A stretch of 64,000 nucleotides of DNA from Candidatus Bathyarchaeota archaeon (GCA_963827165.1 CAWGZR010000012.1:32001-96000), one strand, 5' to 3'. Counted from the stretch's first letter, positions 6,328 through 43,833 are shown. Numbers and translations are program-made. The notes: a model not told the origin generated them from the letters alone.

Positions 6328-6388
6328 ATGACCCGAAAAACAACAAATTGCAAAAAACGCAAAAATAAAAAAGCTTGCTAGGCAAAGC

Positions 6389-11253: not shown

Positions 11254-12601
11254 GTGGTCCTTGAACGAAACGAAAAAATAATCGCGTACCAAACTTACGT
11301 GGCCAAAGGTGGAAACACAAGTGCGCCAGCCAGTTACTGGAGCGATTACAAGTGGCAATTGAACAAGTTCCATAAGGTCAATCGAAGCTTTTGAACAGTT
11401 AACCGGCATAAATTTCACAGGAAAACGAACGCGAAAAACTTGAAGAAACAATAAGGAAATTTCCGCTCTGCGTAACCCCGTATTATGCTTCGTTGATAAA
11501 ACAGCAGAATTTCCACTGTGACCCAATATTTAAGCAGGCGTTTCCAGACCCGGCTGAGCTAACAATTTCAAATTGCGACATGAAAGATCCGCTGCATGAA
11601 GACAAAGACAGCCCAGCTAAAGGAATAACACATCGATATCCCGACCGAGTCCTCTTTCTAATCAGCAACAGCTGCGCCATGTACTGTAGGCACTGCACTC
11701 GGAAAAGGAAAGTAGGCGACCCCGAGCAGATGCCTTCAAAACAACAGATAATTCAGGGGATCCGCTATATAGAAGATCACCGGGAAATCCGCGATGTGCT
11801 GCTTTCAGGCGGAGACCCCCTTATGTTGCCTGACGAATATCTAGACTGGATTCTAACTGAGCTAAAAGCATTCCACACGTCGAAGTCGTCAGAATCGGCT
11901 CAAGAATCCCCGTAGTACTGCCCTACAGAATAACCGATGAATTAGTCTACATGCTCAAAAAGCATCATCCGCTTTGGCTCAATACCCAATTCAACCACCC
12001 ACGGGAACTCACCTTGTCCTCCAGAGAAGCCGTAAGAAAACTTGCTGACGCAGGAATCCCACTGGGAAACCAATCCGTGCTACTCGCCGGAGTAAACGAT
12101 TGCCCACAAATCATCAGAGACCTAAACCAAAAACTCGTCCAAAATAGGGTTCGACCCTACTATTTGTTCCAATGCGACCTCTCGGAAGGGCTTAGCCATT
12201 TTCGAACGCCAATTGGCAAGGGCATCGAAATCATGGAATGCCTCGTGGGACACACCAGCGGGTTCGCAGTACCCAGATATGTCGTGGACGCGCCGGGAGG
12301 AGGTGGAAAGATCCCTGTCATGCCAAACTACATCTTATCCCAATCAGCCAATAAAGTGATCCTGAGAAACTACGAAGGCGTCATCACAACTTACACGGAA
12401 CCAGACACGTACACACCTGCTGCATGCGACCAAAACTGCGGCAAATGTGGTATAGAGACAAGATCGTTAACACGCGAGAAGACGGTCGGCATTGGGAAAT
12501 TGCTGCAGGATTCAGGGGAAATATCGTTGATACCGAAGGGAAACGTGCGGATAAAAAGGAGGCTGAAGAAGCAACGTGTGGGAGGTGAATTGGGTGCTTA
12601 G
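11254..12601 (+). pseudogene. kamA: Lysine 2,3-aminomutase (KamA/AblA family), split by three frameshifts (~11370, ~11425, ~11870; errors or decay)
   Basis: [63 protein letters not shown]; GGAGGAG before GTG 11254. Confidence 0.88.
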
Positions 12602-22994: not shown

Positions 22995-23026
22995 AGGGGC
23001 CATAGGATTTGAACCTAGACCTCGGG
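22995..23026 (-). pseudogene. tRNA 3'-half-like fragment
   Basis: Minus strand CCCGAGGTC-TAGG-TTCAAAT-CCTA-TGGCCCCT reads as variable loop, T-arm and acceptor 3' strand; no 5' half adjacent. Confidence 0.55.
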
Positions 23027-23255
23027 GCATTATCGCCAGTTCTAACTTATTTCTATTCAGCCACTTTCCCTTTTTTGACTCAAAAAACAACAGGGCGTGT
23101 TTACTAGATAATAGTCATAAAATTTGGGGTTGTAACGCTATGTGGGTTGCTCTACATAGTCACAAGTAAACGCTTGGTTGTAGTTGCGCTTGTACAGTCA
23201 CACACATAGATTAAGGGCTTGTTTTCTTTTTTTCAGTGGAGAAAAACTCGTGAGT

Positions 23256-23689
23256 ATGAATATGGGCGGGGGCACAACGAGCTTAGTTGTTCCTCCCTTT
23301 CTTAAACAAGAATCTTTAATTATGATATTTGTCGCTCTCGGATTAGGAATTGTCGGAATGGCATTTGCAAGAATCCAGAATAAAGGTTCTTTTCAAATGC
23401 ACCAATCGATTATTACGGGAGCAGTTGCATTAAACTTGATTGCGATTTTTGTGGTAATGATTCCTTCGCTTATCTTTTTTTACCTTAGCTCAAGTTTAAC
23501 CGACATTTCATTTTTCTCAACATTACAGCTGATTCACGGCTTAATTGGGCTTCCAACAGTCATTTTTTCGTTAATGTTTGCATTCAATTTCTTACCTATT
23601 CGTACTAAAAATGGATGATAATAACTGCCATTTTATGGTTAACAAGCCTATATTTAGGTGCAGTGGTGTACGCTACCATGCCAAACTAA
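23256..23689 (+). CDS. DUF420/cytochrome-b-like 4-TM protein (frameshift in A-run ~23610)
   Basis: His in TM segments (MHQSII, IHGLIG); adding one A gives ...RTKKWMIITAILWLTSLYLGAVVYATMPN*. Confidence 0.55.
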
Positions 23690-23791
23690 ACCTCCACAAC
23701 AACATTGACTATCAACCGAAATCTCACGTGAACCCCGGTTAAGCGCAGACTTCACAGGACCATAAGCCACAATAAATAAAAAATTAGAAAA

Positions 23792-26700
23792 TTGGTGAAA
23801 GACTTGAGTTTTGCTGCTCTAATTCCCATCTTGATAATGGAAGGATTGATGGCTCTCTTCGCCGCATGGGCTGTCAAGAAGGGCTCGAAAATCAAGGCTC
23901 CAAGGGAAGCTTGGATGCTGCTCTTCCTCCTTTCAATGATGGCTGAGATGGCTATTAGTATCGTAATTTACCTCTACTTTCCCGGAGCACTCTCCGAAAA
24001 TCTATTGTTAAACATGTTTGTGATGATGGTCACAGTCTTCGCTTTTGCTATCTTGTATGTATTTGATGAACCCAAGACCATGGATGAAACTATATCCGGC
24101 ATTGTGCAGGTAAGATCCGTAATAATCGCGTTGATCGTCGCCTTGGTCCTCTTGTCTGAGGTATTCATGGCCTGGACCCTTGCACTCCTCGGGGGAACTG
24201 CAGCCACGGCTGGAAGCCTCCAAGAAATTTTCATTACAATAACTAACTCTTCAAGTTCTTACTTGTTCATCTTCATGAACTCGGCCGAAATGGCAATAAC
24301 ACTTTTTTTCATCAGAAAAAGACTGCCGAAGGAACTTAGCTGGCTCATTGCGTCTCAAGTTATCATAATGATCCTTTCTCCGACCGCGATTATCAACTCC
24401 GCTTGGGCGAGCCTCTCCCTGGCTGCCGGCAGCGCCATCATGACTTTTCTATTCATATACATCTTCAAGTTCCTGTATGGTAGCAAGACCTTGAGCAAAG
24501 GTATCCTGAACTATCTGCTCTTTCTTATGTTGGCCTATGCCATGATGATGGCAGGTCAGTTTATCTGGCTTCTTAACGGCGATGCCGCAGTTTTTGTGTT
24601 ATCCATAATAGTTGAGATGGTTGTGTACTTCGGAATAGTATTAGACGAGAAGAAGCTTATTTCTTCGAAGTTGGTAAACTGGCAAGCGATGCCGTATTGG
24701 GTCTTTGGCTTCCTCTTGCTTGTATTTGTGGTTGAGTTCTTTATGAGTGGGGTCATGGCCATCGAGGTGTACGGCCAGGGCTTTTTCAATGGAATAATAT
24801 CTGCTTCAACGACGTGGCCCCTTACACGAATATTGAGCGCGGGCTTTTACGTAGGAACGATGACTGTCTTCACGGCTTGGCTCATCAAAAAAGGCTCTGA
24901 GATCAAGACCTTAATTGACGCTGGCATTGTGCTCTTCCTCCTCTCGATGATTGCTACGACATTCATCAGTACAGTCGTCTACCTCTACGTTCAAGCGTCA
25001 TTTACACTCCTTGATCTGGTGGCCATTAACCTGGCGGTAGCAGGCATCACAACAGCTGCCATTCTTTTTGCAATACGCAAGGGAAACGATAGTCTCCTAC
25101 AGCTTAAGGTGAGCAACATCAGGCTCATTTTGTTTGTGTCAATCGTTGCCTTGGTTATCATTTCTGAGGTGTTTATGGGCTGGACCTTTGCGCTGCTTGG
25201 CGGTACAGTATCGATTTCTAGCGGTCTCCAATGGGTCTATTCAGCTCTTATACACGCTACGAGCTCTTTTTGGTTCATCTTCATGATGTCCGCCGAAATG
25301 GGAATAACACTTTTCCTAATAAGAGGCAGGCTGCCAAAGCCAGCCGTCTTGATTATGGCATCTCAAACCATAATAATGATTCTATCTCCCACAGCGATTG
25401 GCAACTCTCTTTGGACCAGCATCTCCCTGATTGCGGGCAGCTCCGTCATGATTTTTCTTTTCATTTACGTCTTTGAATTCCTTTATAAGAATCGGACCAT
25501 CAGCTCAGGCATACTGAACTATCTTCTCTTTCTCATGCTGGCCTACGCGTTGATGATGGCGGGCCAGTTCATCTGGCTTCTCACGGGAGACGCCACAGTC
25601 TTCGTACTCTCTATAATAGCTGAAATGATAGTGTACTTCGGAATCGTATTGGACGAAAGAAGACTTGTTTCATCCAAACCCGCAAGTTGGCAAGCAAAAC
25701 CGTATTGGATCTTCGGTTTCCTGGGGCTCCTTTTCGTGGCGGAGTTCTTCATGGGCGGAGTCTTGGACATCCAAGTGTATGGCACAGGCTTTTTCAATAT
25801 GATGATGTTTGCCCCCACTGCAGGGTCATTCATGAATGTTATAAGTGCGGGCTTTTTCAATTTCATAATGTTCTTCACCAGAATCACCATGTCTCCGTGG
25901 TACCTGATAATGATGGGCATAGAGATGGGCGCGCTTGTAGCCTTTAGAATCAAGTATGTACGGGAGATTGAAACTAAGGTAAGGCTCATGCTTTTGATTC
26001 TCGCTTACGCCGTATACAGTATACTCCTGCCCGTCTTCCTAATTCCCGCCCAACTTCTCGGCAAAATCCCCTGGCTAGGCTGGAGTATGGGCATAGGAAG
26101 CTCAGGCGCTATAGCTCCCGCAGTTTTAATTGCGTTGCTCGGCGCATTTCTGATCAGTGGCATTCTTTCCTTTCTTTTCGGTAGCAGGCAACTATGCTCT
26201 GTAACGTGCATGGCTCCCCTCATGTACCAAGGGACAACTATAGATGCCATGAACTCATGCAGTGGAACTTCCAAGCTTGCATGCAAGCTGCACACAAACA
26301 AAATATCATCCGCCTATAAGGTCGTCGTATCGGCGGTGTGGATCTCGCTTCTGGCTGCAGCTTTACTATCCTACTTGGCGTCTGTAGGAATTTCAGGAAT
26401 CTCTGTCTTCGGCATGGATCCAGCCTTCTTCCTGTTCATGTTTTACTTCGGCTTTCTCTGGTACGTTATTTGGATGATGATCCCCTTTGTCGGCACGTAC
26501 GGCTGCGTCTCAACTGGCATGTGTGGCTGGGGAGCTTTCAACCAGCTCATCTCCCGAGCTGGGTTGTTTAGGCTAAAGGTGAAGGACAAGGCGCTTTGCC
26601 GCAGCTGTACGACAAAGGACTGCTCGAAGGGCTGTCCCCTAGGTCTCACAGGTCAGCCGGCGGCGTTCGCTGCGAAGGGCGAGTTCAGAAACTACAAATG

Positions 26701-28003
26701 CATCGGCGACGGGAACTGCGTTTCGGCCTGCCCACACAGAAATATATCCTTCTACGATGTAAGACATTGGTTAAGGGAGCACGCACGTAAACCCATGACC
26801 ACAGGCTCAATCAGCTTTTTGAAGCTCTTATCAAGGAACATTAGAAGACGACCCTTCAGGAACATGGCAACAATACTATGTTTTGCCTTCATTGCAGCCA
26901 GCATACTATCCGCGGGATACCTAATCAGCGGAACCACCAACAGCCTTAACGTTGGAATATCACGAATGGGTGCTGACATAATGGTAGTTCCAGCAAATTC
27001 TTCCGCTGCAGGAGAATCTTTGCTCCTAAATGGACAGCCAACAACATTCTTCTTTAACAACAACCCAGTCCCAGAAATAATGAGAGACCCTGGAGTGGCC
27101 GCCGTCTCCCCCCAATTATACATTGCAACCCTCGGAGCCTCCTGCTGCTCTTACCCCATTCAATTAATAGGATTCAATTCCAGTCAAGACTTCACTATTA
27201 CGCCTTGGTTACAAACAAAACTTGTCGGAACCTTGAAGCAAAATGAAATCATTGTTGGAAGCGCCATTATAGGGAATGTAGGTTCCCAACTCGAATTTTA
27301 TGGCCAAAATTTCACCATTGCAGGAAAGCTGTCGCCCACAGGAATGGGGTTAGACGAGACGGTCTTCATGCGTATGCAAGATGCCTACGCTATGGCCGCT
27401 GAATCAAACACAACAGCGGTAGAACCTCTCAATATTCAATCTGGGCAGATCTCGGCAGTTTTAGTACGTGTGGCACCCGGTAACAGTATAGCAGGAGTGG
27501 CAGCTGTTCTCGGATCTACTATTTCAGGAGTTCAAGTTATTCAGTCGAGCGGGCTGGTAAACACCGTGGCGAACCAAATATCCGCCACTACCCAACTTCT
27601 GTATTTTGCTGCGGCTTCGGTCACTTTGGTTTCTCTTCCGCTGATTGCTCTTGTTTCTTCAATGGTGATTAACGAGCGAAAGAGAGAGATAGGTATTCTC
27701 AGGGCAACGGGTGCCACCAAACGATTCATTCTTAAACTTTTCTTCTCGGAAGCGATTGCTCTCGCCCTAATCGGCGGAATACTGGGTGTTTTTTCCTCTT
27801 TCATCATGATTTACAGCTTTCAGCATTTTATAGCACTTCAACTTCAAATACCCTTTCTCTGGCCGTCTATTGGTCAAACTCTTGCCGAAGCCGGATTGGT
27901 CCTGGTTCTTGTAGTCGGTGCCGGAGCCGCTGCATCTCTATATCCAGCGATAAAAAACAGTCGGTTAGAACCGTACAACGCGATAAGGAGCGGAGAATCT
28001 TGA
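23792..28003 (+). CDS. Multi-TM polyferredoxin (NapH/FoxG/FtrD-like) with tandem-duplicated membrane domain, fused to a MacB/FtsX ABC permease
   Basis: Repeat offset 336 aa; CSVTC, CRSCTTKDCSKGCP, CIGDGNCVSACP; MGADIMVVP, GASCC, ERKREIGILRATGA, YPAIKNSRLEP. Confidence 0.75.
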   Translation: MVKDLSFAALIPILIMEGLMALFAAWAVKKGSKIKAPREAWMLLFLLSMMAEMAISIVIYLYFPGALSENLLLNMFVMMVTVFAFAILYVFDEPKTMDETISGIVQVRSVIIALIVALVLLSEVFMAWTLALLGGTAATAGSLQEIFITITNSSSSYLFIFMNSAEMAITLFFIRKRLPKELSWLIASQVIIMILSPTAIINSAWASLSLAAGSAIMTFLFIYIFKFLYGSKTLSKGILNYLLFLMLAYAMMMAGQFIWLLNGDAAVFVLSIIVEMVVYFGIVLDEKKLISSKLVNWQAMPYWVFGFLLLVFVVEFFMSGVMAIEVYGQGFFNGIISASTTWPLTRILSAGFYVGTMTVFTAWLIKKGSEIKTLIDAGIVLFLLSMIATTFISTVVYLYVQASFTLLDLVAINLAVAGITTAAILFAIRKGNDSLLQLKVSNIRLILFVSIVALVIISEVFMGWTFALLGGTVSISSGLQWVYSALIHATSSFWFIFMMSAEMGITLFLIRGRLPKPAVLIMASQTIIMILSPTAIGNSLWTSISLIAGSSVMIFLFIYVFEFLYKNRTISSGILNYLLFLMLAYALMMAGQFIWLLTGDATVFVLSIIAEMIVYFGIVLDERRLVSSKPASWQAKPYWIFGFLGLLFVAEFFMGGVLDIQVYGTGFFNMMMFAPTAGSFMNVISAGFFNFIMFFTRITMSPWYLIMMGIEMGALVAFRIKYVREIETKVRLMLLILAYAVYSILLPVFLIPAQLLGKIPWLGWSMGIGSSGAIAPAVLIALLGAFLISGILSFLFGSRQLCSVTCMAPLMYQGTTIDAMNSCSGTSKLACKLHTNKISSAYKVVVSAVWISLLAAALLSYLASVGISGISVFGMDPAFFLFMFYFGFLWYVIWMMIPFVGTYGCVSTGMCGWGAFNQLISRAGLFRLKVKDKALCRSCTTKDCSKGCPLGLTGQPAAFAAKGEFRNYKCIGDGNCVSACPHRNISFYDVRHWLREHARKPMTTGSISFLKLLSRNIRRRPFRNMATILCFAFIAASILSAGYLISGTTNSLNVGISRMGADIMVVPANSSAAGESLLLNGQPTTFFFNNNPVPEIMRDPGVAAVSPQLYIATLGASCCSYPIQLIGFNSSQDFTITPWLQTKLVGTLKQNEIIVGSAIIGNVGSQLEFYGQNFTIAGKLSPTGMGLDETVFMRMQDAYAMAAESNTTAVEPLNIQSGQISAVLVRVAPGNSIAGVAAVLGSTISGVQVIQSSGLVNTVANQISATTQLLYFAAASVTLVSLPLIALVSSMVINERKREIGILRATGATKRFILKLFFSEAIALALIGGILGVFSSFIMIYSFQHFIALQLQIPFLWPSIGQTLAEAGLVLVLVVGAGAAASLYPAIKNSRLEPYNAIRSGES

Positions 28004-28743
28004 TTGTCGTCTCTGAACTTTCAAAAGCTTACAGGAAAGATATTGAGCCAGTTGAAACCAAAAGCTCTGACGGCAGCTCTTACATGCGCACCGTCGACTA
28101 TTTTAGAGCGGTTCAGAATGCCACTTTTTCTGTTTCAAAAGGAGAGTTTGTATTAATTTTAGGCCGCTCTGGAAGCGGAAAAAGTACATTGCTCAGCATG
28201 TTGGGAGGCCTCACCGCTCCCACCGAGGGTGTCGTCAGGTTGAATGACAAAAATCTATGGTCTATGTCTGATGAAGCTTTGTCTCATCTTCGAGCAGAAT
28301 ACATAGGTTTTGTTTTTCAGTTCTCAGGCTTGTTACCGACATTAAATGTTTTGGAAAACGTGATGTTGCCTTCCCTATTCGTTAAAGCGAAAGAAGACCC
28401 AATAAAGCGCGCTCGTAAACTCCTTTTAGATGTTGGACTTGATTCGAAGATCCAGTCGTTTCCTTCTGAGCTTTCTGGGGGCGAGCTCAAAAGGGCTGCA
28501 ATAGCTAGAGCTTTGATCAATGATCCTTTGCTCATCTTGGCGGATGAGCCGACGGGGGATTTGGACGTGGACACTGAAAGGGAAATTATGGAGCTTTTCA
28601 AAGAGATTAATCGGCAGGGAAAAACTATTCTTATGGTTACTCACAACCCGGAACTTTCAAGTTACAGCAGCAGAGTTATTAGAATGGAAAAGGGAAAAAT
28701 AAGTGAGCCACTATTCCATCTGTCCTCAGAAGAAACTGTGTGA
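28000..28743 (+). CDS. LolD/MacB-type ABC ATPase
   Basis: GRSGSGKS, GFVFQF, LSGGE, ADEPTGDLD, VTH. Confidence 0.92.
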   Translation: MIVVSELSKAYRKDIEPVETKSSDGSSYMRTVDYFRAVQNATFSVSKGEFVLILGRSGSGKSTLLSMLGGLTAPTEGVVRLNDKNLWSMSDEALSHLRAEYIGFVFQFSGLLPTLNVLENVMLPSLFVKAKEDPIKRARKLLLDVGLDSKIQSFPSELSGGELKRAAIARALINDPLLILADEPTGDLDVDTEREIMELFKEINRQGKTILMVTHNPELSSYSSRVIRMEKGKISEPLFHLSSEETV

Positions 28744-29037
28744 TATTCGGCCCTTGATGACTTAACATGTTGGTTTATCCCTAAATTGTTTGTTGAAGTA
28801 TGTTTGGGAACGTGCTAGCTCGAAAAGAGTTACGATCGCCTTATTCAGCTTGAATTTTTTTGAGCCTTTTTATTTGCGTGCAACACTGAAAAATGCGGTA
28901 AATATGCAAAGGAAACTTTTGGATATTGTAAATGAAAAACAAATATCGCTGTTGTGAAGACTGGGAACTGAAAACAGTATCTACAGTTACGTGTGCGTAT
29001 TTCTTGGTGCGTTAAAGGTATGTTTAGTTCATCCTTT

Positions 29038-29247
29038 TTATCGCGGGGTCTTTGACGGCTTAGCAAAGTAAACAGCAATTATGCCCAAAATGAATGCGAC
29101 CGCGCCGAGAACTATTAACCCCGATTCGTTAGGCTTATACATCATCAACCAACTCATTAGGGTTTGGGCGCCTAGCCCAATGCCAATGATGATTCCACCT
29201 GCCAACGAAAGGATGCATCCAACATATATTAACCATAATTTTGTCAT
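29038..29247 (-). CDS. Small 2-TM membrane protein
   Basis: 69 aa, ATG start, two hydrophobic helices, basic tail. Confidence 0.55.
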   Translation of the reverse strand: MTKLWLIYVGCILSLAGGIIIGIGLGAQTLMSWLMMYKPNESGLIVLGAVAFILGIIAVYFAKPSKTPR

Positions 29248-29419
29248 AATTAGCTCACAAAATTATCTTTTGGGGCTGTCTAGTACATAAGGTTTGCCAA
29301 ATCCGCGTGCAGGCTTGTCCCGAAATTACTAATGTTTGTTTTGAGAAGAGGGTCTCACAAGCTTCACAAGAAGCCTTGCACGTTGTAAATGTAACATCAC
29401 TTTTATAAATTCTAAGTGT

Positions 29420-29932
29420 CTATCCTGGCAAAACGGTTACGAATCCGCCCATATATCCAATCTGACCAGGTTGACCATCGCTGCCAGTCATCATCGCCCA
29501 ACCACCCGCATCCGTGTCGCATGGAAAAGTGCACCACCAACGGTAAACACCTGCCGTTGCCTCGTTAAACTGGAAATTAGACACCGTCGGAACCCCAGTT
29601 TCGTTGCTTGGCAGAACCACAAAGTTCACCCCCAAGGTTGGGCTAGTAAAGCTATGCTCTCCGTCGTCATAGTTTATAACCGTTAAATTGACTTCTTGAT
29701 CTGTATAAACGGTGAAGTTGCATGGAGTAAAAGCGTCGTGCATTAAGCCGTCGGGACCGAGTTTCACGTCACCTTGAACTACCAACGTTATATCTGCTGT
29801 TTTTGGTGTACTGGAAGCTGTGGCTGTTGCAGGTTTTATATCGTAGCCAATTATCAACCCGAGCACAACGGCAGCCATGACTACGACAACGAAAGCAAGC
29901 CAAACTATTTTCGACAAATCACCATTGCTCAA
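29420..29932 (-). CDS. Membrane-anchored cupredoxin-domain protein
   Basis: N-terminal TM, VNLTVINYDDGEHSF, GVYRWWCTFPC...WAM, MGGFVTV. Confidence 0.75.
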   Translation of the reverse strand: MSNGDLSKIVWLAFVVVVMAAVVLGLIIGYDIKPATATASSTPKTADITLVVQGDVKLGPDGLMHDAFTPCNFTVYTDQEVNLTVINYDDGEHSFTSPTLGVNFVVLPSNETGVPTVSNFQFNEATAGVYRWWCTFPCDTDAGGWAMMTGSDGQPGQIGYMGGFVTVLPG

Positions 29933-30450: not shown

Positions 30451-30879
30451 TCAAGCCTTGCCTTCCCCCACTTGTCTTTGTTTGATAACTTCTATCATTT
30501 TTGGCAAAAACTCGATAAACTGCTCTTTCTCCGCATAAATCGATTTTTCAACTACCTCAATCAAGTTGTTAACTAAGATTCTACAGGCTCGTGTAACAGC
30601 CTGTAACTTGTATTCAGTGACCACATGAGTAAACGTGCTCCAGGCTTCTGCTTTCCCAGAATCGAAGAGAAAAATAACATTGCCCTTGATTTCGCCATGA
30701 ACGCTTTTCGATGTATCCGGTTTCCACAGAACAATCAAGCTTATGCCTAACTGATCGAGGCAATCCTGCATCTGCTTCTGAACTAAAGCAAATTGAGCTT
30801 TGGTCTTTCTTATGTTGACGCCTTTAATAGCGGAGTTTGAGAACGTATCTCGACCCTGAACTTCAACCATAACTTTCAA
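30451..30879 (-). CDS. Hypothetical element protein
   Basis: Overlaps upstream ORF (ATGA-type junction); HGEI and TFTHVVTEY resemble a degenerate zincin motif. Confidence 0.55.
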   Translation of the reverse strand: MKVMVEVQGRDTFSNSAIKGVNIRKTKAQFALVQKQMQDCLDQLGISLIVLWKPDTSKSVHGEIKGNVIFLFDSGKAEAWSTFTHVVTEYKLQAVTRACRILVNNLIEVVEKSIYAEKEQFIEFLPKMIEVIKQRQVGEGKA

Positions 30880-31166
30880 GGTGCCTCCTTATCGTCATGG
30901 CTATGTATGTCAGTGAAGGATGGTTGAAAAGACGCGTTTGTGAAGGTTCGCTTTAGTGCCTGGTAGCAATTCTCACAGCGTCTAAGTATGTCTTTTTGAG
31001 GCGTCATGATTTGCTTTGTGACTGCTAAAGCTCCGCAATCTTCGCATTTTTCGCCGCTTGGAAGCTCTTTAACGTAAAATATAGGCTTTTGCTTATTTGC
31101 TTCGTTTTCGTTACTGTTTCTTTTGATTGCCTTCGCCGAATATAAGCGAATTGCCGCTGTTTTCAT
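30876..31166 (-). CDS. Small Zn-finger protein
   Basis: CEDC...CENC; overlaps replicase 3' end. Confidence 0.55.
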   Translation of the reverse strand: MKTAAIRLYSAKAIKRNSNENEANKQKPIFYVKELPSGEKCEDCGALAVTKQIMTPQKDILRRCENCYQALKRTFTNASFQPSFTDIHSHDDKEAP

Positions 31167-34100
31167 TCTTCTCTGAAACTACGGGGTTTACTGGCTCTTG
31201 CTTTTCTGGTTTGCCGTTTGTGCCGTCTTTGCCGACCTCAGAAAAGGAATCCCTGCCCTCCGCTTGCTCAGTTCTTTCCGTTTCATGGGGTGGGTGTTCT
31301 TTTTTAGCGTCGGCAAGGCAGGCAAGAGCGGCAAAACCGTTAGTTACCTTATGTGCTTCCACCAGTTTTGCCGTTTGATAGTATCCTCGATTGACTTTTA
31401 CCAAGCCTTCAGTTTGAAGAATAGCCATGAGAGGGCGGAGCTGGTTTTTCTCTGTCAGCTCAAATTTGGCTTTGATTTGCTCTTGTGTTGTGCCGCCGGA
31501 GAGCAAGATGAACTTTAGGATTTCAATTAACTTTTCAGTCTCTATGGGTTCCTTTGTCAACTGCCCTTGAATTCTCCGCAGCAGCAATTCTACATCTTCA
31601 AGCGTTAGCCGCTCCATGTGTTCGGTTTGCGCTAGGGCGTTTAGACCTGCTCGGCTGTACTCCTCTTCTAAGGTTTCGCAAACGAGCGCAACGTGGTCTT
31701 TTGTTACGATTAGCTGGGTGAAGTCTTCTGTTGACAGCGTGAGGTAAGCCATTGAGACGCTTAGGCGTGCCAGCTTCCATTTCATGTCCGCGGAGATTAT
31801 AGGGATTTTGTCATAGTGGAACTTGTTCATTAACTCTGTTGCTTTTTCAAGTAGGTATGCCTGAGCATCTGGCGTCCATGTGATTTGAGTCTTGGCGATC
31901 CATGCCCATTTGAGCGCTTCAGCCAGCAACTCCAGTTCTGGTTCATGTTTAGCGTCGGTTGCTTTGTTGATTTGCTCAGGCGTTACATCCCGTTGGTCTG
32001 CAAAAACCGCTAAGTCGCGTCTTGCGATTGATGTCTTGTCTTCTACCGTTGCGAGCGCCTGGATCGGGTAGAGAAATTCTTTCAGCGGCTTTGTAGTGTA
32101 TTTGTCGGTTTCTCTGTCGACGGCGTTGAAGATTTTGATTTGGCGTGTACGTGCGTATGCATTGCCTTTTCCTGCTTTGATTATGGTGACTTCTCCGCTG
32201 CGTTCTGCCTCTGCAGTGACGGCCCATTGTGATGCGGAGAGTTTGTGGCAGCCGTCCATTGCTAAGATTTTGCGGTCCATCAGCGGCAAGAAGCCCCATT
32301 CGATGAACCAGCCGCCGCTTTCTCCCTGCACAGCCGCGCCTACTAAGCCAACAATGCTTGCGGTTTCTGCGCTGACATACATTCCAGCCTTCAGCAAGCC
32401 CTGGATTAATTTCTTGACGGTTTCGCTCTTCCCGACTGTTGAGTCTCCTATGACGTCAACTATGCCCCAGCCATGCTGGACTTCGCCGAAGAGACTAACG
32501 TATGTTGGCGTGAACGAGCACAGGAGGACGGCTTTGGCTATGTTGCGTCTACCGACTATGTGGGTGTAGAGTTCGCAGTTGTCCAGTATCCAGTTTAGAC
32601 GTTCTTTTGGTGTTTTGCTTTCAAGTTTTGCCTTTAAGTGACTGAGTTTGTTGAGATCAAATTGTTCTATCTTTTCTGGGAAGCTGATTTCATAGGCTAA
32701 TAATGTTGTTTTTTGTGTGCGGGGGTGAGGTAGTGGTAGGCCTGTGACGGCTATGAGTCTCGCTGGGCTGGAAATCTAAGGGTTTGTCGGTAGCGATGTA
32801 CATGTCCAGATACTTGTATTCGTGGCCTTTGTCGTCTACGAGTTTGGTTCCCTGCTTCACGAGGGTTGAAACGGGTGGTCTGACCCGGACCAAGATAGAC
32901 TGTGCGGTATCTCTTGATGCCGATTGAAAGCACTTTCCCCTTGAACATTCTTTTGAGGCGGTTCAGTTTTGTCTCATCTTGAATGCCCACAAGTGCCAAG
33001 TTTACGGGGTTGTCGATTTTCAGAATTTGGTTTTCTGTTTCGGGTTCTTGGTTGTCCTCTTTTGTTATGGCTTCTATTTCTGAGGGTATCATGTAGCTGG
33101 TGCTTGTGCTGCTTACTACGGCTTCGACTGAGACGGGGCTGCCTGATAATTCGGGGTTCTCGATGTCGTTGATGTGGCTAAGCAGGATCGGCTTTTCGAG
33201 TTGGCAGTCGGGTAAGCAGTAGCCATATTCCTTGATTGATTGGCAAGTTGCTGTTTTCTCTGGGTCTACGCTTTCAACTTGGTCGCTGCAGACATCATAG
33301 TCAAAGTCGCTTTGCGACCTGAAAAGATCAATGACTTCTTGGTCTGAGTAGCCAAGTCTTTTGTATTCTCCTGCTATTGCAAGCCGCATTAGGTGTCCGT
33401 TGCCGTTGATCAGTTGCTGCTTTAGGGCTTCTACGATGCAGGGTCTGGGTTGCTTGAGGTGCCTCAACCTGGCCTGAGTTAGCGCTGGCTTTGCTGATTT
33501 TTCTTTCTTGTATAAGCCAACGTTTTCCAATGCTTCGTAGAACAGGGTTTCAGCGTTATCGACGATTGTTATTACGTTGTCGTTTTCTCAAGGCTGTATC
33601 CTTCGCTTGGCGCTATGACCATTAGTTGGCCGTGGCTTAGCAGTTCCATTCCTGTCTTGCTTGGTTTGGCGCCTTTTGCTGGTGATCTTGAGAAGTAGAT
33701 TAGGTGGTTGCCGCCTGACCTTGTTTTCTCTCGGTAAGTTGTTTGCATTTGTTTAGAGCTTGCAGGGTTTTCTGTTTGATGTCCTCACTTAAGTTTGGGT
33801 CTTTGATGTCTCGGTCAATGCCGGTGAGGTAAACTGTTTTTCCGTCAACCGTCAGCTTTGTTCCGCAGACTAAACCAAACATTGTATATCTTTCAAAGTG
33901 TAATTCGTTAAATTCTTGTTCTGATTGAGGTCGATCTTGCCATTGCTTCCACGTTTCTACCGCTGGCCGCTTCTCATACTCTTTTTTCTTGTCGTTCCAT
34001 GAGAGAATGAAGGGGATGACTGAAACGCCTTTTTGATGCCATATTTCAGCGGCTTGGAGCAACATCGTATTTTCAGACATCATTGTCACCCTTCTCAATA

Positions 34101-34347
34101 GTTTTGGCGAAAATTGGTCGCATGCTTCGCTGCGGGCTATCTGGTTGATTCTTCCCTTGGTACATCGCCCTGCCCAACTTGAGCAATCCCAACAGCGGTT
34201 TATGGTCTCTCCATTGATGGCTTGACTAAGTAAATTAGCGGCAAGTGCTGTGCATTCTTCAATCGTGTCAGCATAGCCTACAAGCAGAGGTCTATCGTCT
34301 TCTTGTATTTCAAAAGTCGATGTTTCGTTATAGCTTTGGACAGCCAT
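31111..34347 (-). CDS. Replicase: Prim-Pol + PriL-CTD-like Cys domain + MCM-like AAA+ helicase + wHTH; one gene with four frameshifts (~33750, ~33585, ~32893, ~32760); alternative start ATG 34083
   Basis: GIDRD, TRSGGNHLIY, VIAPS; PCI..GHLMRL..TCQSIKEYGYCLPDC; GDSTVGKS at 32448-32425, ILAMDG, SIARRD. Confidence 0.75.
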
Positions 34348-34410
34348 ATCGAGGTAACACTCCTATCTGACCAGTCCTTAGTAAACCTGTTGTGAAGGAG
34401 CAAAATCTTC

Positions 34411-34590
34411 TCAAACGTTTGCCTCCAGACCTCTTTCAAAAACTGGATGTATAGTTATTTTGCCATTAACTTCTAGTGCAATTGCAATTATTTTTTTACC
34501 AGCTTCTCGCTCGGCATTGTCTAACCAACTTTTTGGTAAGGTTATGCCTTTGGAGGCACCGACTGTCGTTAATTTTCGTATTATGGGCAT
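34411..34590 (-). CDS. AbrB/MazE/SpoVT-family DNA-binding protein (59 aa, not in ORF track)
   Basis: Hand translation MPIIRKLTTVGASKGITLPKSWLDNAEREAGKKIIAIALEVNGKITIHPVFERGLEANV. Confidence 0.75.
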   Translation of the reverse strand: MPIIRKLTTVGASKGITLPKSWLDNAEREAGKKIIAIALEVNGKITIHPVFERGLEANV

Positions 34591-34673
34591 TTTTTGTCAC
34601 ATCTTTTCTTTTGATATAATATTACAAAATCCTTATAAGCATTGTTTGGCATAGTACGACTGGTAATGTCATA

Positions 34674-35460
34674 TTGTCAAGGACAAAAACTTCAATTAAA
34701 CCCGAAACAAAAATAATGAAGGCGTTTGTCACAAATACAGAACTAAAACAGTATAAGATGCCTAAAGAAACTGGTCTCAGTTATCGAACAGTTCTAAGAA
34801 CCCTTAAACCCTTGGAAAGTCAAGGCTTCATTAAATTAGTCAGGGTTGAGCCTTCGAAAAAAGGGGGAAAAGAAAGCAAGATTTACGCTTTAACATTAAA
34901 AGGGGTCCTAACTTGCCTAAGCTCATTTTCGCCCGTATTCCCCAGCGATTTTGAAGCGAACGGAATAATTTCATTCCTCGATTGAAAAAGTAAACGAAGT
35001 CATTAAAATCAAAATTAAACCATACAACTTGAAAGATATTACCAACTTCTTAAAAATCTCAGGCACTGACTTAGACTTTCCGATTTTTAAGGAAATAGAT
35101 TGGCTTGAGGCACGTTTTGGCATAGATATTTTTCGAGCATTTATAACTGCCGCAAGAGAAGCTACAGCCAAAGATAAATTGCCTAATGTGGACAGTGTGA
35201 GGAAGATTATGATAAATCATGAAGGTAAGAGTCCTGAGGAAGCTGAAGTAACAATAAAAGAATTCTTAAACATGCAAACCGCATTTTTGCGTGATACTTT
35301 TACTGAGGCTTTCGCTTTCCAGCTTTCATACTTACACAGCAAGGGCGATTTTCACAATGAAAATCTGCATCGCATTTTCGCTAAAGTGGCAACTGAAATT
35401 GAGCAAAGAAATCAAAGCTCCATTGCTCCATTAAGGCATCTGGTTGAAACTCTGAAGTAG
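34674..35460 (+). CDS. Winged-helix regulator, probably one gene with a frameshift at ~34975
   Basis: TGLSYRTVLRTLKPLESQGFI, KIYALTLKG; the +1 frame runs from ~34975 into ORF 35029-35460. Confidence 0.65.
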
Positions 35461-35550
35461 GCGCATGTTACTTCATATTTCCTTTCTGATTAACTTGAAA
35501 AAAGATAGTGCACAAGGGTCAGCGAAGCCAGCAGAAAACGGAGCAAGGTT

Positions 35551-36252
35551 CTATCGCTTATTTAATTCCATAATATCACCATTAACTTCGATGAAATAGA
35601 AGAGAACCGAGCTTACCAAATTGCCATAGCGTTTGAGCCATTCTTGAGGGACTCGTTTGTCATTTCCAAATACAAGAAATTGAATTTGCGCCTTTGTTTT
35701 TTCAAGCATCCAAACGTGTTCAGCAATGTTTGAGAATTTTGCAGGCGGCAGTTTCTCCCCTTTTACCATAGTGAGGTATTTTGCGTCACCGACTATAGCA
35801 TAATCGTCAGATACAAGATCAAACATTTTTCCCCAATTCTCTTTCTTTCTATGTCTAAGAGGCGTGGCAAAATAGTCACTCATTACTTTCTGCGCTATTA
35901 ACTCAAAAGCTATTCCTGGTGAAGCCAAGACCGTGCTATTTGGAGTGAATGAATTTTCTTTGTTTTGATAATTTTCAAGTTTATCGAGTTGTGTTGAAGT
36001 ATTTTGTTTAGTAAAAGTGACCGCGGTATCTTCCAAGTTAACTTGGGTTACTCGCCAACCGCAAGCTAACCAGCCGTCTTCAGCTTGCACGTGAGTTTTA
36101 TCGTTTGACCACCAAGCTCTATATGCTCTAGCGGATCCTGGAAGGGGAAAACCGAGTATATCCTCGAGGGCTCGGAATCTAATTTTTACCGATTCTTTTC
36201 CTGATGTAACCAGGTATTGATAAAGAGGCGCGTATTTCTTCATATTCAGCAC
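35551..36252 (-). CDS. DUF7662-like N-terminal domain + PD-(D/E)XK nuclease
   Basis: KYAPLYQYL..ILGFPLPGSA..AWWSN; FELIA..FDLVS..IVGDAKY. Confidence 0.6.
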   Translation of the reverse strand: MLNMKKYAPLYQYLVTSGKESVKIRFRALEDILGFPLPGSARAYRAWWSNDKTHVQAEDGWLACGWRVTQVNLEDTAVTFTKQNTSTQLDKLENYQNKENSFTPNSTVLASPGIAFELIAQKVMSDYFATPLRHRKKENWGKMFDLVSDDYAIVGDAKYLTMVKGEKLPPAKFSNIAEHVWMLEKTKAQIQFLVFGNDKRVPQEWLKRYGNLVSSVLFYFIEVNGDIMELNKR

Positions 36253-36468
36253 TCCCTTTGTCGCAATTATTGGTCGCGTTCGAACTAATAAATAATACCT
36301 TTTTTAAATAATAAAGGTATGACAGTTTTGATTAAATGATTGTGACTGTAAGTGAGAGCTTATTAGCTAAAGAGACCAAATATAGTCTTTTGACTTTAGA
36401 GAGGGTTAGTTACGGCTAAACAGTTAAACTTAGACTTAAAGGCAACAAAAACATCTAACGGAGCCAAT

Positions 36469-37992
36469 TTGGGTTTTGAGGCTAAGTTGTGGATGACTGC
36501 CGACAAGCTGCGTAATAACATGGACGCTGCAGAATACAAACATGTTGTTTTAGGCCTAATTTTTCTCAAGTATATTTCTGATGCCTTTACAGAGGTTTAT
36601 AATGATTTGAAGAATGATAAACTCGCTGATCCTGAGGATGTCGATGAGTATAGGGCTCGGAATGCTTTTTGGGTTCCGGCTAAAGCGCGTTGGGATTTTT
36701 TGCAAAAGAACGCCAAACAGCCAACCATTGGAATAACAATGGATGATGCGATGGATGCTATCGAACGGGAAAACCCCAGCTTGAAGGGTGTTTTGCCCAA
36801 GAACTATGCCCGTGAAAGTCTGGACAAGCAGAGACTTGGAGAGCTAATCGATTTAATCGGCACCATAGGCTTAGGCGATAGGGAAAGCCGGAGCAAAGAC
36901 ATCCTCGGCAGGGTTTACGAGTATTTTCTGGGTCAATTTGCTGATGCTGAAGGCAAGAAAGGCGGCCAATTCTACACTCCCAAAAGCATCGTTCAACTTC
37001 TCGTGGCCATGATTGAACCTTTCAAGGGCAGAGTCTTTGACCCATGCTGTGGCAGCGGCGGCATGTTCATACAAAGCGAAAAATTCGTAGCCGCCCACCA
37101 AGGACGCTTAGACGACATACACATCTTTGGGCAAGAATCCAACCAAACAACCTGGCGCCTCTGCAAAATGAACCTCGCCATAAGAGGCATAGAATCAAAA
37201 GAAGTAAGATGGAACAACGAAGGCAGCTTCCTAAACGACCTCCACAAAGACCTAAAAGCAGACTATCTATTGGCTAATCCGCCGTTTAATGATTCTGACT
37301 GGAAAGGCGAAATGCTAAGAGAAGACAATCGCTGGAAATACGGCACACCCCCCGCAGGAAACGCAAACTTTGCATGGGTACAACACTTCATACACCATTT
37401 AGCACCTCATGGCATAGCGGGTTTTGTGCTTGCAAACGGCTCAATGAGCAGCAACACGTCAAACGAAGGAGAAATACGCAAAAACATGATCGAAGCCGAT
37501 TTAGTGGATTGCATGGTAGCCCTGCCCTCCCAACTATTCTACAACACAATGATACCAGCATGCCTATGGTTTGTTGCAAGAGATAAGCAAAATAATAAAT
37601 TCCGAGACCGCAGAGGCGAAGTGCTGTTTATTGACGTTCGAAAGCTTGGAGTAATGGCTGACAGAAGGCATAGAGAACTAACACCAGAAGACATCAAGAA
37701 GATTTCCGATGTTTACCATGCGTGGAGAGGAGAACGGGTAGATGGACAAGCAGTAGAATACCGAGATATTGCTGGATTCTGCAAAGTCGCAAGACTTGAG
37801 ACCATTAGGAAACAAGGACACATACTAACACCTGGACGTTATGTTGGCACTGAAGCGCAAGAGGAAAATCATGAAGAATTTAACAAGAAAATGAAGCAGT
37901 TTATCGCTGAACTTTCAGAGCAAATAGAAGAAAGCAAGAAGCTTGATGAAGAAATAATGAATAGTTTGGAAAGTATCGGATATGGCGCCTGA
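36469..37992 (+). CDS. hsdM: Type I R-M methyltransferase
   Basis: [19 protein letters not shown]; homologous frame extends up to ACG at 36412. Confidence 0.95.
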
Positions 37993-39332
37993 GGACAAAG
38001 TACTTTTCAAACAAACTGAGATAGGAATGATTCCTGAAGATTGGAGAGTAGTTAGCACGAATGAAGTAGTCGCCTCAGAGAAAAATTCTTTAAAAACTGG
38101 GCCATTCGGAACCCAGCTGAAGAAATCCTTTCTTGTTGCAAAAGGCTTTAAAGTGTACGGACAAGAAAATGTTTTTCGAAATGATTTTTCTTTCGGGGAT
38201 AGATTTATACCAAAAGAAAGATTTGAGCTCTTGAAATCCTGTGAGCTGAAGCCCGGCGATATAGTTATATCCAGAATGGGAACCGTCGGCCTATCAGCTA
38301 TTGTACCTGGCAATATTCAGCAAGGAATAATGGATTTCCATCTTTTGAGGCTAAGACCTAATCGCTCAAAATTTGACGCTGAGTTTCTCCTTTACGCTAT
38401 TCGTTCCGAAGTAATCCAGAATCAGATAAACTCGCTTTCTGTCGGGACTATTATGGATGGATTGAGTTCCAAAGTGATTGGAATGCTAATGTTCCCAATG
38501 CCTTCGCTCCCAGAACAAAAAGCCATTTCGAAAATCTTAAGAAACTTTGATTCGAAAATTAAAGTCAACTCAAAAATGAACCAAAATCTGGAGTCCATCG
38601 GGCGGGCCATTTTTAGTCGTTGGTTTGTTAATTTTGAGTTTCCTAACCAAGAAGGTAAGCCCTATAAATCATCAGGCGGAGAAATGGCGGAATCAGAAAT
38701 AGGTTTAATTCCAAAAGACTGGAAAATTCTCCAAAATATTTCTGAGGCTTGCGAGTTGATAAATTATGGTTACACTCAAAGTGCCAGTAATGAGAACGTT
38801 GGTCCTCATTTTCTAAGAGTGATGGACATAAACAAAGCGGATTGGGTTAATTGGGGTACTGTTCCATTTTGTAAGATTTGTGAAAAAGACAAACCGAAAT
38901 ATTTGCTCAAAATGAAAGATATCGTTATAGCCAGAATGGCTGACCCTGGTAAGATTGCGATTTTTGAGTCAGATTTAGAAGCTATTTTTGCGTCGTACTT
39001 AATTAGAATACGTTTGAAAAACCCACATTATGGGTATTATTTTTACCATTCTTATGAAGTCGCCGTATTATCAAAATTTCATAGAAGGGGCTACTACTGG
39101 CTCAGTTCAAAAAAATCTAAATGCTAAATCGTTAACATCAAACTTACCGGTAATTATACCTAACAAGGAAGTAACTATTTTGTTTGACTCTATCATAGAG
39201 AATTTACGAGCTAAAATAAACTGCAACTTGGCAGAATCTACTACTTTAGCCAAGGTTAGAGATAGCTTGTTACCAAAACTCATGTCTGGAAAAATTAGAG
39301 TTCCTATCGATAACAAAGTGGAGTCGTCTTAA
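37982..39332 (+). CDS. hsdS: Type I R-M specificity subunit (frameshift ~39049)
   Basis: Two TRD repeats (EIGMIPEDW / EIGLIPKDW), LPEQKAI, C-terminal [15 protein letters not shown] in the second frame. Confidence 0.9.
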
Positions 39333-42300: not shown

Positions 42301-42454
42301 GCTGCGAGACAACGTTCAAGCAAAACTGCGAATCATGGTTAAACATATACTCAAAAAATACGGTTACCCACCAGATAAGCAGGAAAAAGCAACCATAACA
42401 GTTCTCGACCAAGCAAAGCTGTTATGCAAAGATTGGGCGGAACCACAAAACTAA
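39332..42454 (+). CDS. hsdR: Type I R-M restriction subunit
   Basis: [44 protein letters not shown]. Confidence 0.96.
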
Positions 42455-42546
42455 ACAAGTTATAATGGGGATGCAATAAGAATTGAAAGCCTCTAAAACA
42501 ATTGAGACAGCCGACTTTTGACTTGCTGCTTCAAGTGTGAAAAACC

Positions 42547-43221: not shown

Positions 43222-43456
43222 CTCCGTACTCTTCCAAGTATGAGGAGATGCTCAGGGGATTATCATCTAATATTAGCGTACTTCCCGGCAGTATTGCCAT
43301 ACTCTCTATTTTTATCGGTTCACCTATGTACTTGTCGAGAACTTGTTCACCATTCTTATTCAGAACATATGTTCCATCTGAACCAAAACCAAGTTCTTCC
43401 AGTAACAAAATTTTGCAATTTACCGGCATGTCTTTCAGAGACATTATTTCAGTCAA
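43211..43456 (-). CDS. Small acidic hypothetical protein
   Basis: 81 aa, coupled to 42547-43221. Confidence 0.6.
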   Translation of the reverse strand: MTEIMSLKDMPVNCKILLLEELGFGSDGTYVLNKNGEQVLDKYIGEPIKIESMAILPGSTLILDDNPLSISSYLEEYGDGV

Positions 43457-43833
43457 TTTTTATCACTCTCTAGTAATGTATTAATTAATTCTTTTTTAAA
43501 TTATCCTATTATGACTATATAGGTTATGAATTCTGTCTCCAGTATAACCCATTTTAGTATTTGTCGTTATCGCTTTATTAGTATTTAACCGTAGTGGCTT
43601 TTTTTGACATATGGTTTCATAAAAAGTCACAGAGTGTCCCTACCTAACATAACGTTAAGGATTGTATAACCATTAAATCTATCGGAACAATGAGTTTCTG
43701 GGTAATTGCTCGACATGAATACAAATCGGCTTTGTATCTCTTATCTACTCCTGTGAATTTATCTTTGTGTGATTGTCAGAATACTATCACAGTGAATATA
43801 AAATAGTCTAACATCATTGACTATATCTTTATG

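Follow-up and report, generated by a model that had tools for sequence, protein, structure and literature searches.

The question raised by the locus described here is whether a very large archaeal membrane protein, in which a polyferredoxin resembling NapH runs without interruption into the permease of an ATP-binding cassette (ABC) transporter, is a genuine gene product, and what such a protein might do. The locus lies in a stretch of 64,000 nucleotides (nt) from Candidatus Bathyarchaeota archaeon (GCA_963827165.1, CAWGZR010000012.1:32001-96000), called the window below, with positions counted from its first letter, and the gene in question is an open reading frame (ORF) of 1403 amino acids (aa) at 23792-28003 on the plus strand. 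A first-pass annotation made from the window itself had grouped this ORF with an upstream DUF420-like gene, an ATPase gene and a cupredoxin gene as a mobile module for redox-coupled Cu/Fe transport or metalloprotein maturation. According to the analysis presented below, the locus is chromosomal and belongs to a soil Bathyarchaeia-type archaeon, in which a copy of a polyferredoxin whose family is associated with oxidases is fused in-frame to an ordinary archaeal MacB-type permease. Tentatively, and at less than even confidence, the polyferredoxin is regarded as a CcoG-like, copper-handling factor for the biogenesis of oxidases and cupredoxins, fused here to an ABC transporter.

The window is a piece of archaeal chromosome carrying genes for TBP, a pyruvoyl-dependent arginine decarboxylase, an Lhr helicase, tRNase Z and a THUMP methyltransferase, and the nearest public relatives of the fused gene were found in soil or peat metagenome-assembled genomes (MAGs) labelled Bathyarchaeota or Bathyarchaeia. 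A study of this class describes a soil Bathyarchaeia genus with genes for cytochrome c oxidases, unlike the remaining members of the class (PMC10321748); the word polyferredoxin is absent from the main text of that article. Relatives were collected by a genome scan that yielded 101 encoding loci, 80 of which were kept for analysis (labelled L001 and so on). The window proteins were compared with 6804 ORFs from these 80 loci, a set of 64 homologues was used for the conservation and module models of the polyferredoxin, and the Pfam scans of window ORFs covered 12 ORFs and a further 51 ORFs. The polyferredoxin family defined in this way ranges over soil and peat Bathyarchaeia, Nitrososphaerales-labelled MAGs, Conexivisphaerales and Thermoplasmata.

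The fusion is genuine

From its N-terminus, the ORF comprises an orphan membrane domain present as a tandem pair, then a polyferredoxin module of the NapH type and lastly a complete MacB/FtsX-type permease, much as the first-pass annotation had described it (a multi-transmembrane region, a polyferredoxin and a permease in one open frame). The fusion is real and not an artefact, because an ORF of exactly the same length (1403 aa, 85.7% identical, aligned without gaps) and with the same junction is present in a second Bathyarchaeota MAG, L001, and because the ratio of nonsynonymous to synonymous substitution rates (dN/dS) between the two copies is 0.28 for repeat 1 of the orphan domain, 0.14 for repeat 2, 0.19 for the NapH module and 0.16 for the permease, all segments thus being under purifying selection. 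A further protein from another assembly, P0001 (1215 aa), is 100% identical to the window protein over the shared part and also reads through the junction, and it diverges near its end in a frameshift-like manner. No stop codon separates the two halves in either L001 or P0001.

At the junction, the usual C-terminal tail of the polyferredoxin (8–16 residues) is missing together with its stop codon, and five codons lead in-frame to the ATG of the permease. Five relatives (L002, L004, L005, L006 and L038) end in RHWLRERFRN and a few further residues, with the stop 8–16 codons past RHWLRE, and the polyferredoxin homologues in the protein collection are mostly 983–1005 aa long. The in-frame ATG opening the sequence MTTGS, which had been pointed out earlier as a possible start of a separate gene, is the retained start of the permease.

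Nucleotide similarity between the window and L001 is confined to 23765-28773 and 29015-29310, with a 12.6% difference over the block. Among the 80 loci, the permease and the 69-aa protein encoded after the ATPase were matched in L001 only, and the ATPase gave a strong match in L001 alone, with weaker generic ABC matches in 12 other loci. The five genes that had been taken for one module are therefore not conserved as such: just the polyferredoxin–permease fusion, the ATPase gene and the 69-aa gene recur, and they do so in one of the 80 loci, which makes the fusion rare.

Architecture of the fused protein

The first ~700 residues of the ORF are a tandem duplication with a 1008-nt period (73% nucleotide identity across 300 nt), and the two copies of the orphan domain share 55% aa identity. 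Among stand-alone polyferredoxins, those of the closest Bathyarchaeia have this repeat twice and the others have it once. At ten loci with a one-repeat polyferredoxin (L019, L020, L022, L023, L024, L027, L041, L049, L061 and L074), a second orphan-domain copy was seen as a separate adjacent gene of 290–467 aa, the split counterpart of the fused tandem repeat of the Bathyarchaeia.

No Pfam family matched the orphan domain, even at E ≤ 5, and Pfam scans of 33 distant members of the family returned no informative domain. The conserved positions in the alignments are mostly Glu and Met. In the region of repeat 2, E459, M462, F495, E502, M503, Q525, M529, M553 and Y577 are invariant, M588, M589, E611, M612, E651 and M654 are conserved in at least 90% of the sequences, and M707, M708, E711 and M712 are invariant in the 64-sequence set; residues 1–750 as a whole contain 6.3% Met, a single His and no Cys. 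An AlphaFold2 model of residues 338–1000 built from the 64 homologues (predicted local distance difference test, pLDDT, 82.9; predicted template-modelling score, pTM, 0.86) has ~13 helices before the Fe-S module, and the size of the orphan domain is put at about 10–13 helices. A Foldseek search of this 663-aa model against the PDB gave nothing at E ≤ 0.001 (best E 0.54, TM-score ≤ 0.15), and the sequence profile of the polyferredoxin recovered only ferredoxin domains from the PDB, with no match for the orphan domain. With the orphan-domain profile, 172 representative clusters out of 1.84 billion were recovered at E ≤ 1e-3, including ~300-aa stand-alone proteins and ~650–720-aa fusions to the Fe-S module. 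In the protein atlas, the polyferredoxin and the other families queried had as neighbours their own unnamed archaeal clusters and, at a score of 0.88 that is to be taken as a lead, bacterial Fer4_5 polyferredoxins, and nothing else.

The polyferredoxin module follows. Positions 57–277 of the 286 positions of the NCBIfam NapH model align to it (E 3.2e-9); the score of 36 bits is far under the equivalog cut-off of 234, and 48 of the 64 family members match the model. Pfam Fer4_10, a 4Fe-4S dicluster domain, was found at residues 930–981 (nucleotides 26597–26734, E 1.3e-5), and both Fer4_10 and Fer4_7 match all 64 homologues. The two ferredoxin motifs are CRSCTTKDCSKGCP (936–949) and CIGDGNCVSACP (970–981), the second with Asp at a position usually occupied by Cys, and they are preceded by two membrane-proximal Cys motifs, CSVTC (802–806; 26195–26209) and C-x5-C (905–911; 26501–26524), each invariant or nearly so across the 64 homologues. 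The Cys clusters and paired ferredoxin motifs reported in the first-pass annotation are borne out, the former being probably of the NapH type; in the NapH group, such Cys motifs have the form CX3CP. Fer4_5 was not among the 25 families listed out of 28 found for the 64 members, and one distant member, P0275, matched it weakly (E 0.009). The Fe-S domain of the fusion is cytoplasmic, because the chain enters the first helix of the permease from the inside ~30 residues later.

The permease has the layout of a type VII ABC transporter subunit, with one N-terminal helix, a large extracytoplasmic domain and the three-helix FtsX bundle (Pfam FtsX at residues 1272–1391; NCBIfam MacB, E 1.1e-7). P0001 and most homologues have a precomputed MacB_PCD domain (PF12704), which the window's own scan did not return at E ≤ 0.01. 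The sequence ASCC at residues 1116–1119 (Cys-Cys at 27143–27148) lies between the first transmembrane helix and the FtsX helices; read with the preceding residue it is GASCC, and its Cys-Cys pair is invariant in all 14 aligned permease homologues. At E ≤ 0.001, 297 permease homologues were found, and 119 of the best 120 are stand-alone proteins of 378–421 aa. Those with taxonomic names include proteins from Methanoregula, Methanomicrobiales and Methanomassiliicoccales, and in this subfamily the invariant Cys-Cys is followed by Pro two residues later.

The cognate ATPase scored best with LolD (TIGR02211, E 9.6e-66, 221 bits against a cut-off of 308), followed by FtsE (4.4e-56) and MacB (5.8e-52), all under the equivalog cut-offs, and it is 90% identical at the aa level in L001. 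Its overlapping start and its LolD-type match agree with the first-pass description, as do the FtsX match and the extracytoplasmic ASCC of the permease. The 69-aa protein matched no family in Pfam (including hits at E ≤ 5) or in NCBIfam. As judged from profile matches, the parts of the locus belong to known superfamilies: the polyferredoxin is of the NapH type, the permease and its LolD-type ATPase are of the type VII ABC group, and the anchored protein is a cupredoxin. None of them reaches an equivalog cut-off. The coordinates of all features are collected in Table 1.

Table 1 Features of the fused locus and of the element-like stretch next to it, in window coordinates
Feature	Position	Strand	Remarks
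DUF420/CtaM-like small membrane protein gene, frameshifted	23184..23689	+	ORF 23184-23618 encodes three helices
Orphan domain repeat 1, Met/Glu-rich, multi-helix	23792..24802	+	ORF residues 1-337; dN/dS 0.28 against L001
Orphan domain repeat 2 and further helices	24803..26047	+	Residues 338-752
NapH-type membrane polyferredoxin module	26048..26755	+	Residues 753-988; NCBIfam NapH, Pfam Fer4_10
Fusion junction, WLREHARKP/MTTGS	26777..26797	+	Ancestral ATG of the permease in frame at 26795
MacB/FtsX-type (type VII ABC) permease half	26792..28003	+	Residues 1001-1403; FtsX E 1.3e-17
Cognate ABC ATPase, LolD/MacB/FtsE clade	28000..28743	+	Start overlaps permease stop; ABC_tran E 6.8e-31
69-aa two-helix membrane protein	29038..29247	-	84% aa identical in L001, directly after ATPase
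Membrane-anchored cupredoxin	29420..29932	-	Pfam Cupredoxin_1 E 2e-5, 25 bits (cut-off 27)
MCM-like P-loop protein	31111-32397	-	In element-like stretch
Type I restriction-modification, complete	HsdM 36469-37992, HsdS 37982-39127, HsdR 39332-42454		In element-like stretch
Tyrosine-recombinase-like (integrase) gene	46944-48323	-	In element-like stretch

Relatives adjoin oxidase genes or vicinal-dithiol proteins

The most informative context of the polyferredoxin was found in its stand-alone relatives. COX1 lies within 5 kb of the polyferredoxin gene in 12 of the 80 loci, accompanied by COX2 (11 loci), a COX4-like gene (11 loci) and a UbiA gene of the heme O synthase type (6 loci). Six of the 12 are Bathyarchaeia loci that also encode type-1 cupredoxins, the Bathyarchaeia oxidase clusters hold a DUF420-like gene as well, and homologues of both the DUF420-like gene and the cupredoxin of the window sit at oxidase loci. 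The earlier remark that no oxidase subunit is visible is correct for the window, but it passes over the main clue, which is provided by the oxidase clusters of the relatives.

At 47 of the 80 loci, the polyferredoxin instead adjoins membrane proteins that are not homologous to one another and that carry vicinal Cys residues in a GA(S)CC motif. One such family (c1b) is adjacent in 17 loci, from Nitrososphaerales-labelled MAGs, one Conexivisphaerales, one Bathyarchaeia and two Thermoplasmata, and all 18 of its ORFs contain GASCC[LI]S or a close variant. The other (c2) comes from 30 loci, all of Thermoplasmata, where it never lies more than 100 nt upstream of the polyferredoxin; 29 of its 30 ORFs contain GACC[ST], and the exception is a 129-aa ORF located 9 nt from a contig end. 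No homology between c1b and c2 was detectable by hhalign (probability 0.2). Neither family matched Pfam at E ≤ 5 or showed a match to MerT, MerC or MerF, the mercury transporters that GASCC may call to mind, and the c1b profile gave no PDB match at E ≤ 10. The motif G[AGS][AST]?CC[ASTLIV] was absent from all 640 other ORFs of at least 150 aa at the same loci, 24 of which contain any CC at all; this motif was defined after the data had been seen, and the independent events to be counted are three families rather than 49 genes.

An anchored cupredoxin follows c1b (and is fused to it in L016) in 10 loci, within 1.2 kb of the polyferredoxin. Nine of these ten cupredoxins carry C-x3-C-x2-H-x2-M, the one in L047 being without the second Cys, and after iteration they were found to be the subfamily closest to the cupredoxin of the window. 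These neighbourhoods, with oxidases at 12 loci and cupredoxins at 10, make the copper or metalloprotein theme of the first-pass annotation plausible. A structure prediction for the complex of the L019 polyferredoxin with its adjacent c1b protein gave no answer (score 0.00 in two runs) and speaks neither for nor against binding.

Possible function and alternative explanations

CcoG offers the closest functional precedent for this combination of features. A 2020 review presents CcoG as a membrane protein encoded in oxidase clusters that has two [4Fe-4S] clusters and two Cu sites and reduces Cu(II), and it gives CopZ of A. fulgidus as the sole archaeal cupric reductase known at that time (PMC7558416). 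The polyferredoxin described here may act as a CcoG-like factor in a comparable way. A cytoplasmic reductant would load the [4Fe-4S] clusters, the Cys motifs would reduce Cu(II) to Cu(I), and the Met/Glu-lined domain would pass Cu(I) through or along the membrane, where the vicinal dithiol of a partner protein would accept it at the outer face. Extracytoplasmic copper centres, namely those of cupredoxins and the CuA/CuB centres of heme-copper oxidase, would then be loaded. In most relatives, the dithiol partner would be a separate adjacent membrane protein; in the fused lineage, the acceptor would be the Cys-Cys-containing extracytoplasmic domain of the permease, to which the ATPase would add ATP-driven mechanotransmission. 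In this scheme, we infer that copper is the substrate and which way it is transported, as well as the part played by the Cys-Cys pair and any coupling of the two halves.

A more ambitious version of the same scheme would make the family an undescribed archaeal copper/redox transmembrane system, in which the NapH-like module drives the Met/Glu domain and a vicinal-dithiol acceptor, three unrelated acceptors having been recruited independently, and in which the 1403-aa protein represents the first case of a redox module built into a type VII ABC transporter. Taken as a whole, this version is improbable.

Several observations weigh against the CcoG-like assignment. No CcoG-specific model and no FixG_C domain matched the window protein in the Pfam and NCBIfam scans, and Fer4_18 matched 26 of the 64 members weakly (best E 9.5e-4). 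The oxidase-linked and the CC-linked loci form disjoint classes, and the dithiol partner is not universal, since the 12 oxidase loci have no CC-motif neighbour; in 20 of the 80 loci, the DNA covered shows no oxidase and no CC partner, many of these loci ending at a contig edge. The Cys-Cys pair is also the hallmark of a large family of stand-alone permeases that includes methanogen proteins, and it need not concern the polyferredoxin. Finally, no oxidase, c1b or c2 gene was found in any frame of the window, and the DUF420-like gene is frameshifted, so the window copy could be a relic.

Other observations bear on the fusion itself and lead to the first alternative, which is fairly unlikely: that the fusion is an accidental read-through with uncoupled halves, a rearrangement having brought a duplicated polyferredoxin gene, without its last codons, to a position 15 nt before an unrelated ABC exporter operon begins. 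This explanation concerns the coupling of the halves and not the role of either half, and it allows that the permease may use its own ATG. It is favoured by the presence of the fusion in one of the 80 related loci, the other 79 having a stand-alone polyferredoxin of 660–1005 aa, by the abundance of stand-alone permeases, including one of 402 aa that is 96% identical to the fused one, by the presence of an oxidase-linked copy (L028) in the same MAG as L001, and by the genes around the block, which differ completely between the window and L001. In addition, the ancestral ATG and the N-terminus of the permease are intact, and therefore the two halves may function, and may even be produced, separately. 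In a tree of 15 Bathyarchaeia-group copies, the fused pair was not resolved as a clade (bootstrap 25–62); the identical junction argues for a single origin of the two. Against an accident, however, the 1403 codons have stayed open in two genomes that are 12.6% apart, with dN/dS of 0.14–0.28 in the polyferredoxin segments. Moreover, the topology is compatible, a cytoplasmic Fe-S domain leading into the cytoplasmic N-terminus of the permease, and the permease shares GASCC with the usual neighbours of the family.

The second alternative, an unlikely one, is that of a respiratory electron module, i.e., a NapH-like protein oxidising quinol or ferredoxin and exchanging electrons with cupredoxins and an oxidase, with the orphan domain binding quinone or translocating ions. 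NapH, the ferredoxin subunit of a quinol dehydrogenase, is indeed the sole named full-length match, the family adjoins oxidase structural genes and type-1 blue copper proteins, and the orphan domain is predicted with confidence to fold as a large helical bundle. However, the NapH score of 36 bits stands against a cut-off of 234, the single His and the lack of Cys in residues 1–750 leave no obvious transmembrane redox cofactor, and the 47 loci that pair with CC-motif proteins have no oxidase in their flanks.

A thiol-reductant relay like that of CcdA/DsbD with TlpA, keeping the CC pair and the cupredoxin CxxxC reduced for metal uptake, appears very improbable. The invariant vicinal Cys in three non-homologous partners, the CxxxC cupredoxins adjoining dithiol partners, and the combination of cytoplasmic Fe-S clusters with Cys motifs at the membrane face would all suit such a relay, but the orphan domain has no cysteines through which a disulfide cascade could be relayed, and the scan of the conserved neighbourhoods revealed no protein with a thioredoxin fold.

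Flanking genes and the question of mobility

The DUF420-like gene upstream of the fusion is broken: at an A5 run (23607-23611) the frame is lost, and the codons for the fourth helix of its product lie in a different frame (23609-23689). An indel error may explain this frameshift; in the long-read MAG relatives L006, L028 and L038, the polyferredoxin itself is broken into 2–3 ORFs, which makes indel errors plausible in such data. The window copy had no Pfam DUF420 match at E ≤ 5. A homologue in L004 (E 6e-22 to the window copy) does match DUF420 (E 4.5e-6, 27.4 bits against a cut-off of 30.5) and directly precedes the polyferredoxin, in the same order as in the window; further homologues are present, among the 80 loci, in L009, L028 and L030. 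The window gene is thus a putative DUF420-like gene through the L004 homologue and not through a match of its own, and its reading frame is lost before helix 4.

The downstream cupredoxin was well recognised earlier as a membrane-anchored protein: its AlphaFold2 model (pLDDT 84) has an N-terminal helix at residues 5–30, and Foldseek confirmed the cupredoxin fold, with hits to a Cupredoxin_1 protein (4hcf, E 1.2e-6), to nitrosocyanin and to the CuA domains found in oxidase subunit II and in N2O reductase. It has conserved His92, Cys133, Cys137 and Met146 (C-x3-C…M). The CuA ligand set is incomplete, the second His being replaced by a D-T-D-x-G-G-W insert in the Bathyarchaeia subfamily; the Nitrososphaerales cupredoxins that adjoin the polyferredoxin retain C-x3-C-x2-H-x2-M. 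Among the 80 loci, an orthologue of the window cupredoxin (83% aa identity) is present only in L006, on the far side of the oxidase cluster and adjoining NikR and ZnuABC-type genes.

An integrated-element-like stretch with a strong AT skew lies directly downstream of the locus at ~30.4–48.3 kb (30451-48323). Apart from the genes listed in Table 1, it contains a DUF7662 protein and several ORFs without a family. Its GC content is 0.39–0.44, that of the fused ORF being 0.46–0.49, like the host flanks. No direct repeat of at least 13 nt was found between the flanks of the locus and the integrase end, except for one chance match inside the ATPase gene, and no att-like repeat encloses either the locus or the element. 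ARAGORN found no tRNA gene in the window, and no Rfam family was detected there. The 580 nt that separate the THUMP methyltransferase gene from the DUF420-like gene contain, at 22996-23030 on the minus strand, a sequence resembling a tRNA T-arm with the 3' acceptor strand; it has no matching 5' half and was not called by ARAGORN or Rfam, and an old integration or rearrangement may have left it as a scar.

In L001, the 5.5-kb block is chromosomal, with Nramp, DtxR-type, VTT and Pvc16_N genes on one side and genes for deoxyhypusine synthase, two radical-SAM/SPASM proteins and two AhbA/B-like proteins on the other, and no mobility genes were found within 8–10 kb on either side (13 flanking ORFs scanned). 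Mobility of the module, claimed in the terms "mobile" and "cargo", is largely refuted by the lack of bracketing repeats, the non-mobile context in L001 and the GC content. The first-pass reading as a whole, that of a mobile FtrABCD-like module for redox-coupled Fe/Cu uptake carried as cargo of the adjacent element, is next to untenable: the integrated element directly downstream, with its MCM-like gene, type I restriction-modification genes and integrase, the tRNA 3'-half-like fragment, and a cupredoxin beside a membrane polyferredoxin, which recalls FtrB/FtrD (the FtrABCD composition being taken from PMC11966278), are outweighed by the absence of an FTR1/REXXE permease and of P19 from the window ORFs scanned, of a tRNA gene and of att repeats, together with the L001 context and the host-like GC.

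Some further genes were noted in passing. In L001 (15593-22706 and 5546-7316), the two radical-SAM/SPASM and two AhbA/B-like genes (siroheme decarboxylase, helix-turn-helix type), together with Nramp and a DtxR-type repressor, were seen on the two sides of the block, and the radical-SAM/SPASM and AhbA/B-like genes suggest alternative heme biosynthesis. In the window, lysine 2,3-aminomutase appears to be split into two ORFs at 11493-12601, a radical-SAM part (11493-11915) and LAM_C (11951-12601), and is followed by a GNAT acetyltransferase gene, giving an ablA/ablB-like pair; the split may be an indel artefact or a genuine disruption. At 4826-7690 on the minus strand, two tandem Amt genes adjoin an NADPH-dependent FMN reductase gene and an amino-acid ABC uptake operon.

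Significance and comparison with known systems

The polyferredoxin family is a concrete candidate for a part in the little-understood metallation of archaeal heme-copper oxidases and of the many extracytoplasmic cupredoxins of archaea: it is narrow (172 clusters in 1.84 billion), its predicted fold is confident and has no PDB match, and its neighbours are oxidases, cupredoxins and dithiol proteins. The existence of the fused form suggests that such a factor and a MacB-type mechanotransmission transporter are functionally linked, and it also highlights a permease subfamily of archaea that is abundant but unstudied and whose Cys-Cys pair is invariant. What had been viewed as one module in the window is a mosaic, the informative oxidase context of which is visible in the relatives only. 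In the literature searched (supplements, with their possible gene tables, were outside the search), no description was found of the orphan Met/Glu domain, the dithiol pairing, the archaeal oxidase linkage or the fusion to a MacB-type permease.

FtrABCD resembles the locus in bringing together a cupredoxin, a membrane polyferredoxin (FtrD) and a permease-like part, and a literature search combining FtrABCD, polyferredoxin and cupredoxin returned nothing. The analogy is nevertheless not supported, because the window ORFs scanned include no FTR1-type permease, P19 protein or cytochrome b; the first-pass annotation had itself remarked that no FTR1 permease was visible. FoxG of the Sulfolobales fox cluster, which was also invoked in that annotation, adjoins oxidase subunits, and the papers listed by a search for FoxG do not contain the term.

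NapH of the NapGH pair and the C-terminal modules of NosH/NosR have the same succession of helices, Cys motif, helices, Cys motif and two [4Fe-4S] clusters. The module of the window differs in its sub-cut-off score, in its Cys motifs (C-x3-C-x2-P and C-x5-C) and in the large additional N-terminal domain, and no NapG, nitrate reductase or N2O reductase is encoded near the polyferredoxin. The second half of the fusion is similarly related to MacB, LolCDE and FtsEX, with which it shares the helix, the large extracytoplasmic domain and the FtsX bundle, as well as a LolD-type ATPase with an overlapping start; unlike them, it is a member of an uncharacterised subfamily from archaea in which an extracytoplasmic Cys-Cys pair is invariant. 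The literature searched offered no example of a type VII permease that carries an Fe-S or membrane redox domain at its N-terminus.

The closest comparison is with CcoG/FixG (and YccM), the bacterial membrane cupric reductase that serves in the biogenesis of cbb3 oxidase. It is a member of the NapH superfamily, to which the polyferredoxin also appears to belong; the two have in common a pair of [4Fe-4S] clusters in the cytoplasm, Cys motifs on the membrane face, and genes located beside those of heme-copper oxidases. The window protein differs from CcoG in having neither the Ig-like FixG_C domain nor a match to a CcoG-specific model, and the archaeal family differs in having one or two copies of a ~335-aa, Met/Glu-rich, many-helix domain. 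Its members are archaeal and are found by A-type-like COX1/COX2 (UbiA) clusters rather than in ccoNOQP-GHIS clusters, and the copy in the window is fused to an ABC permease.

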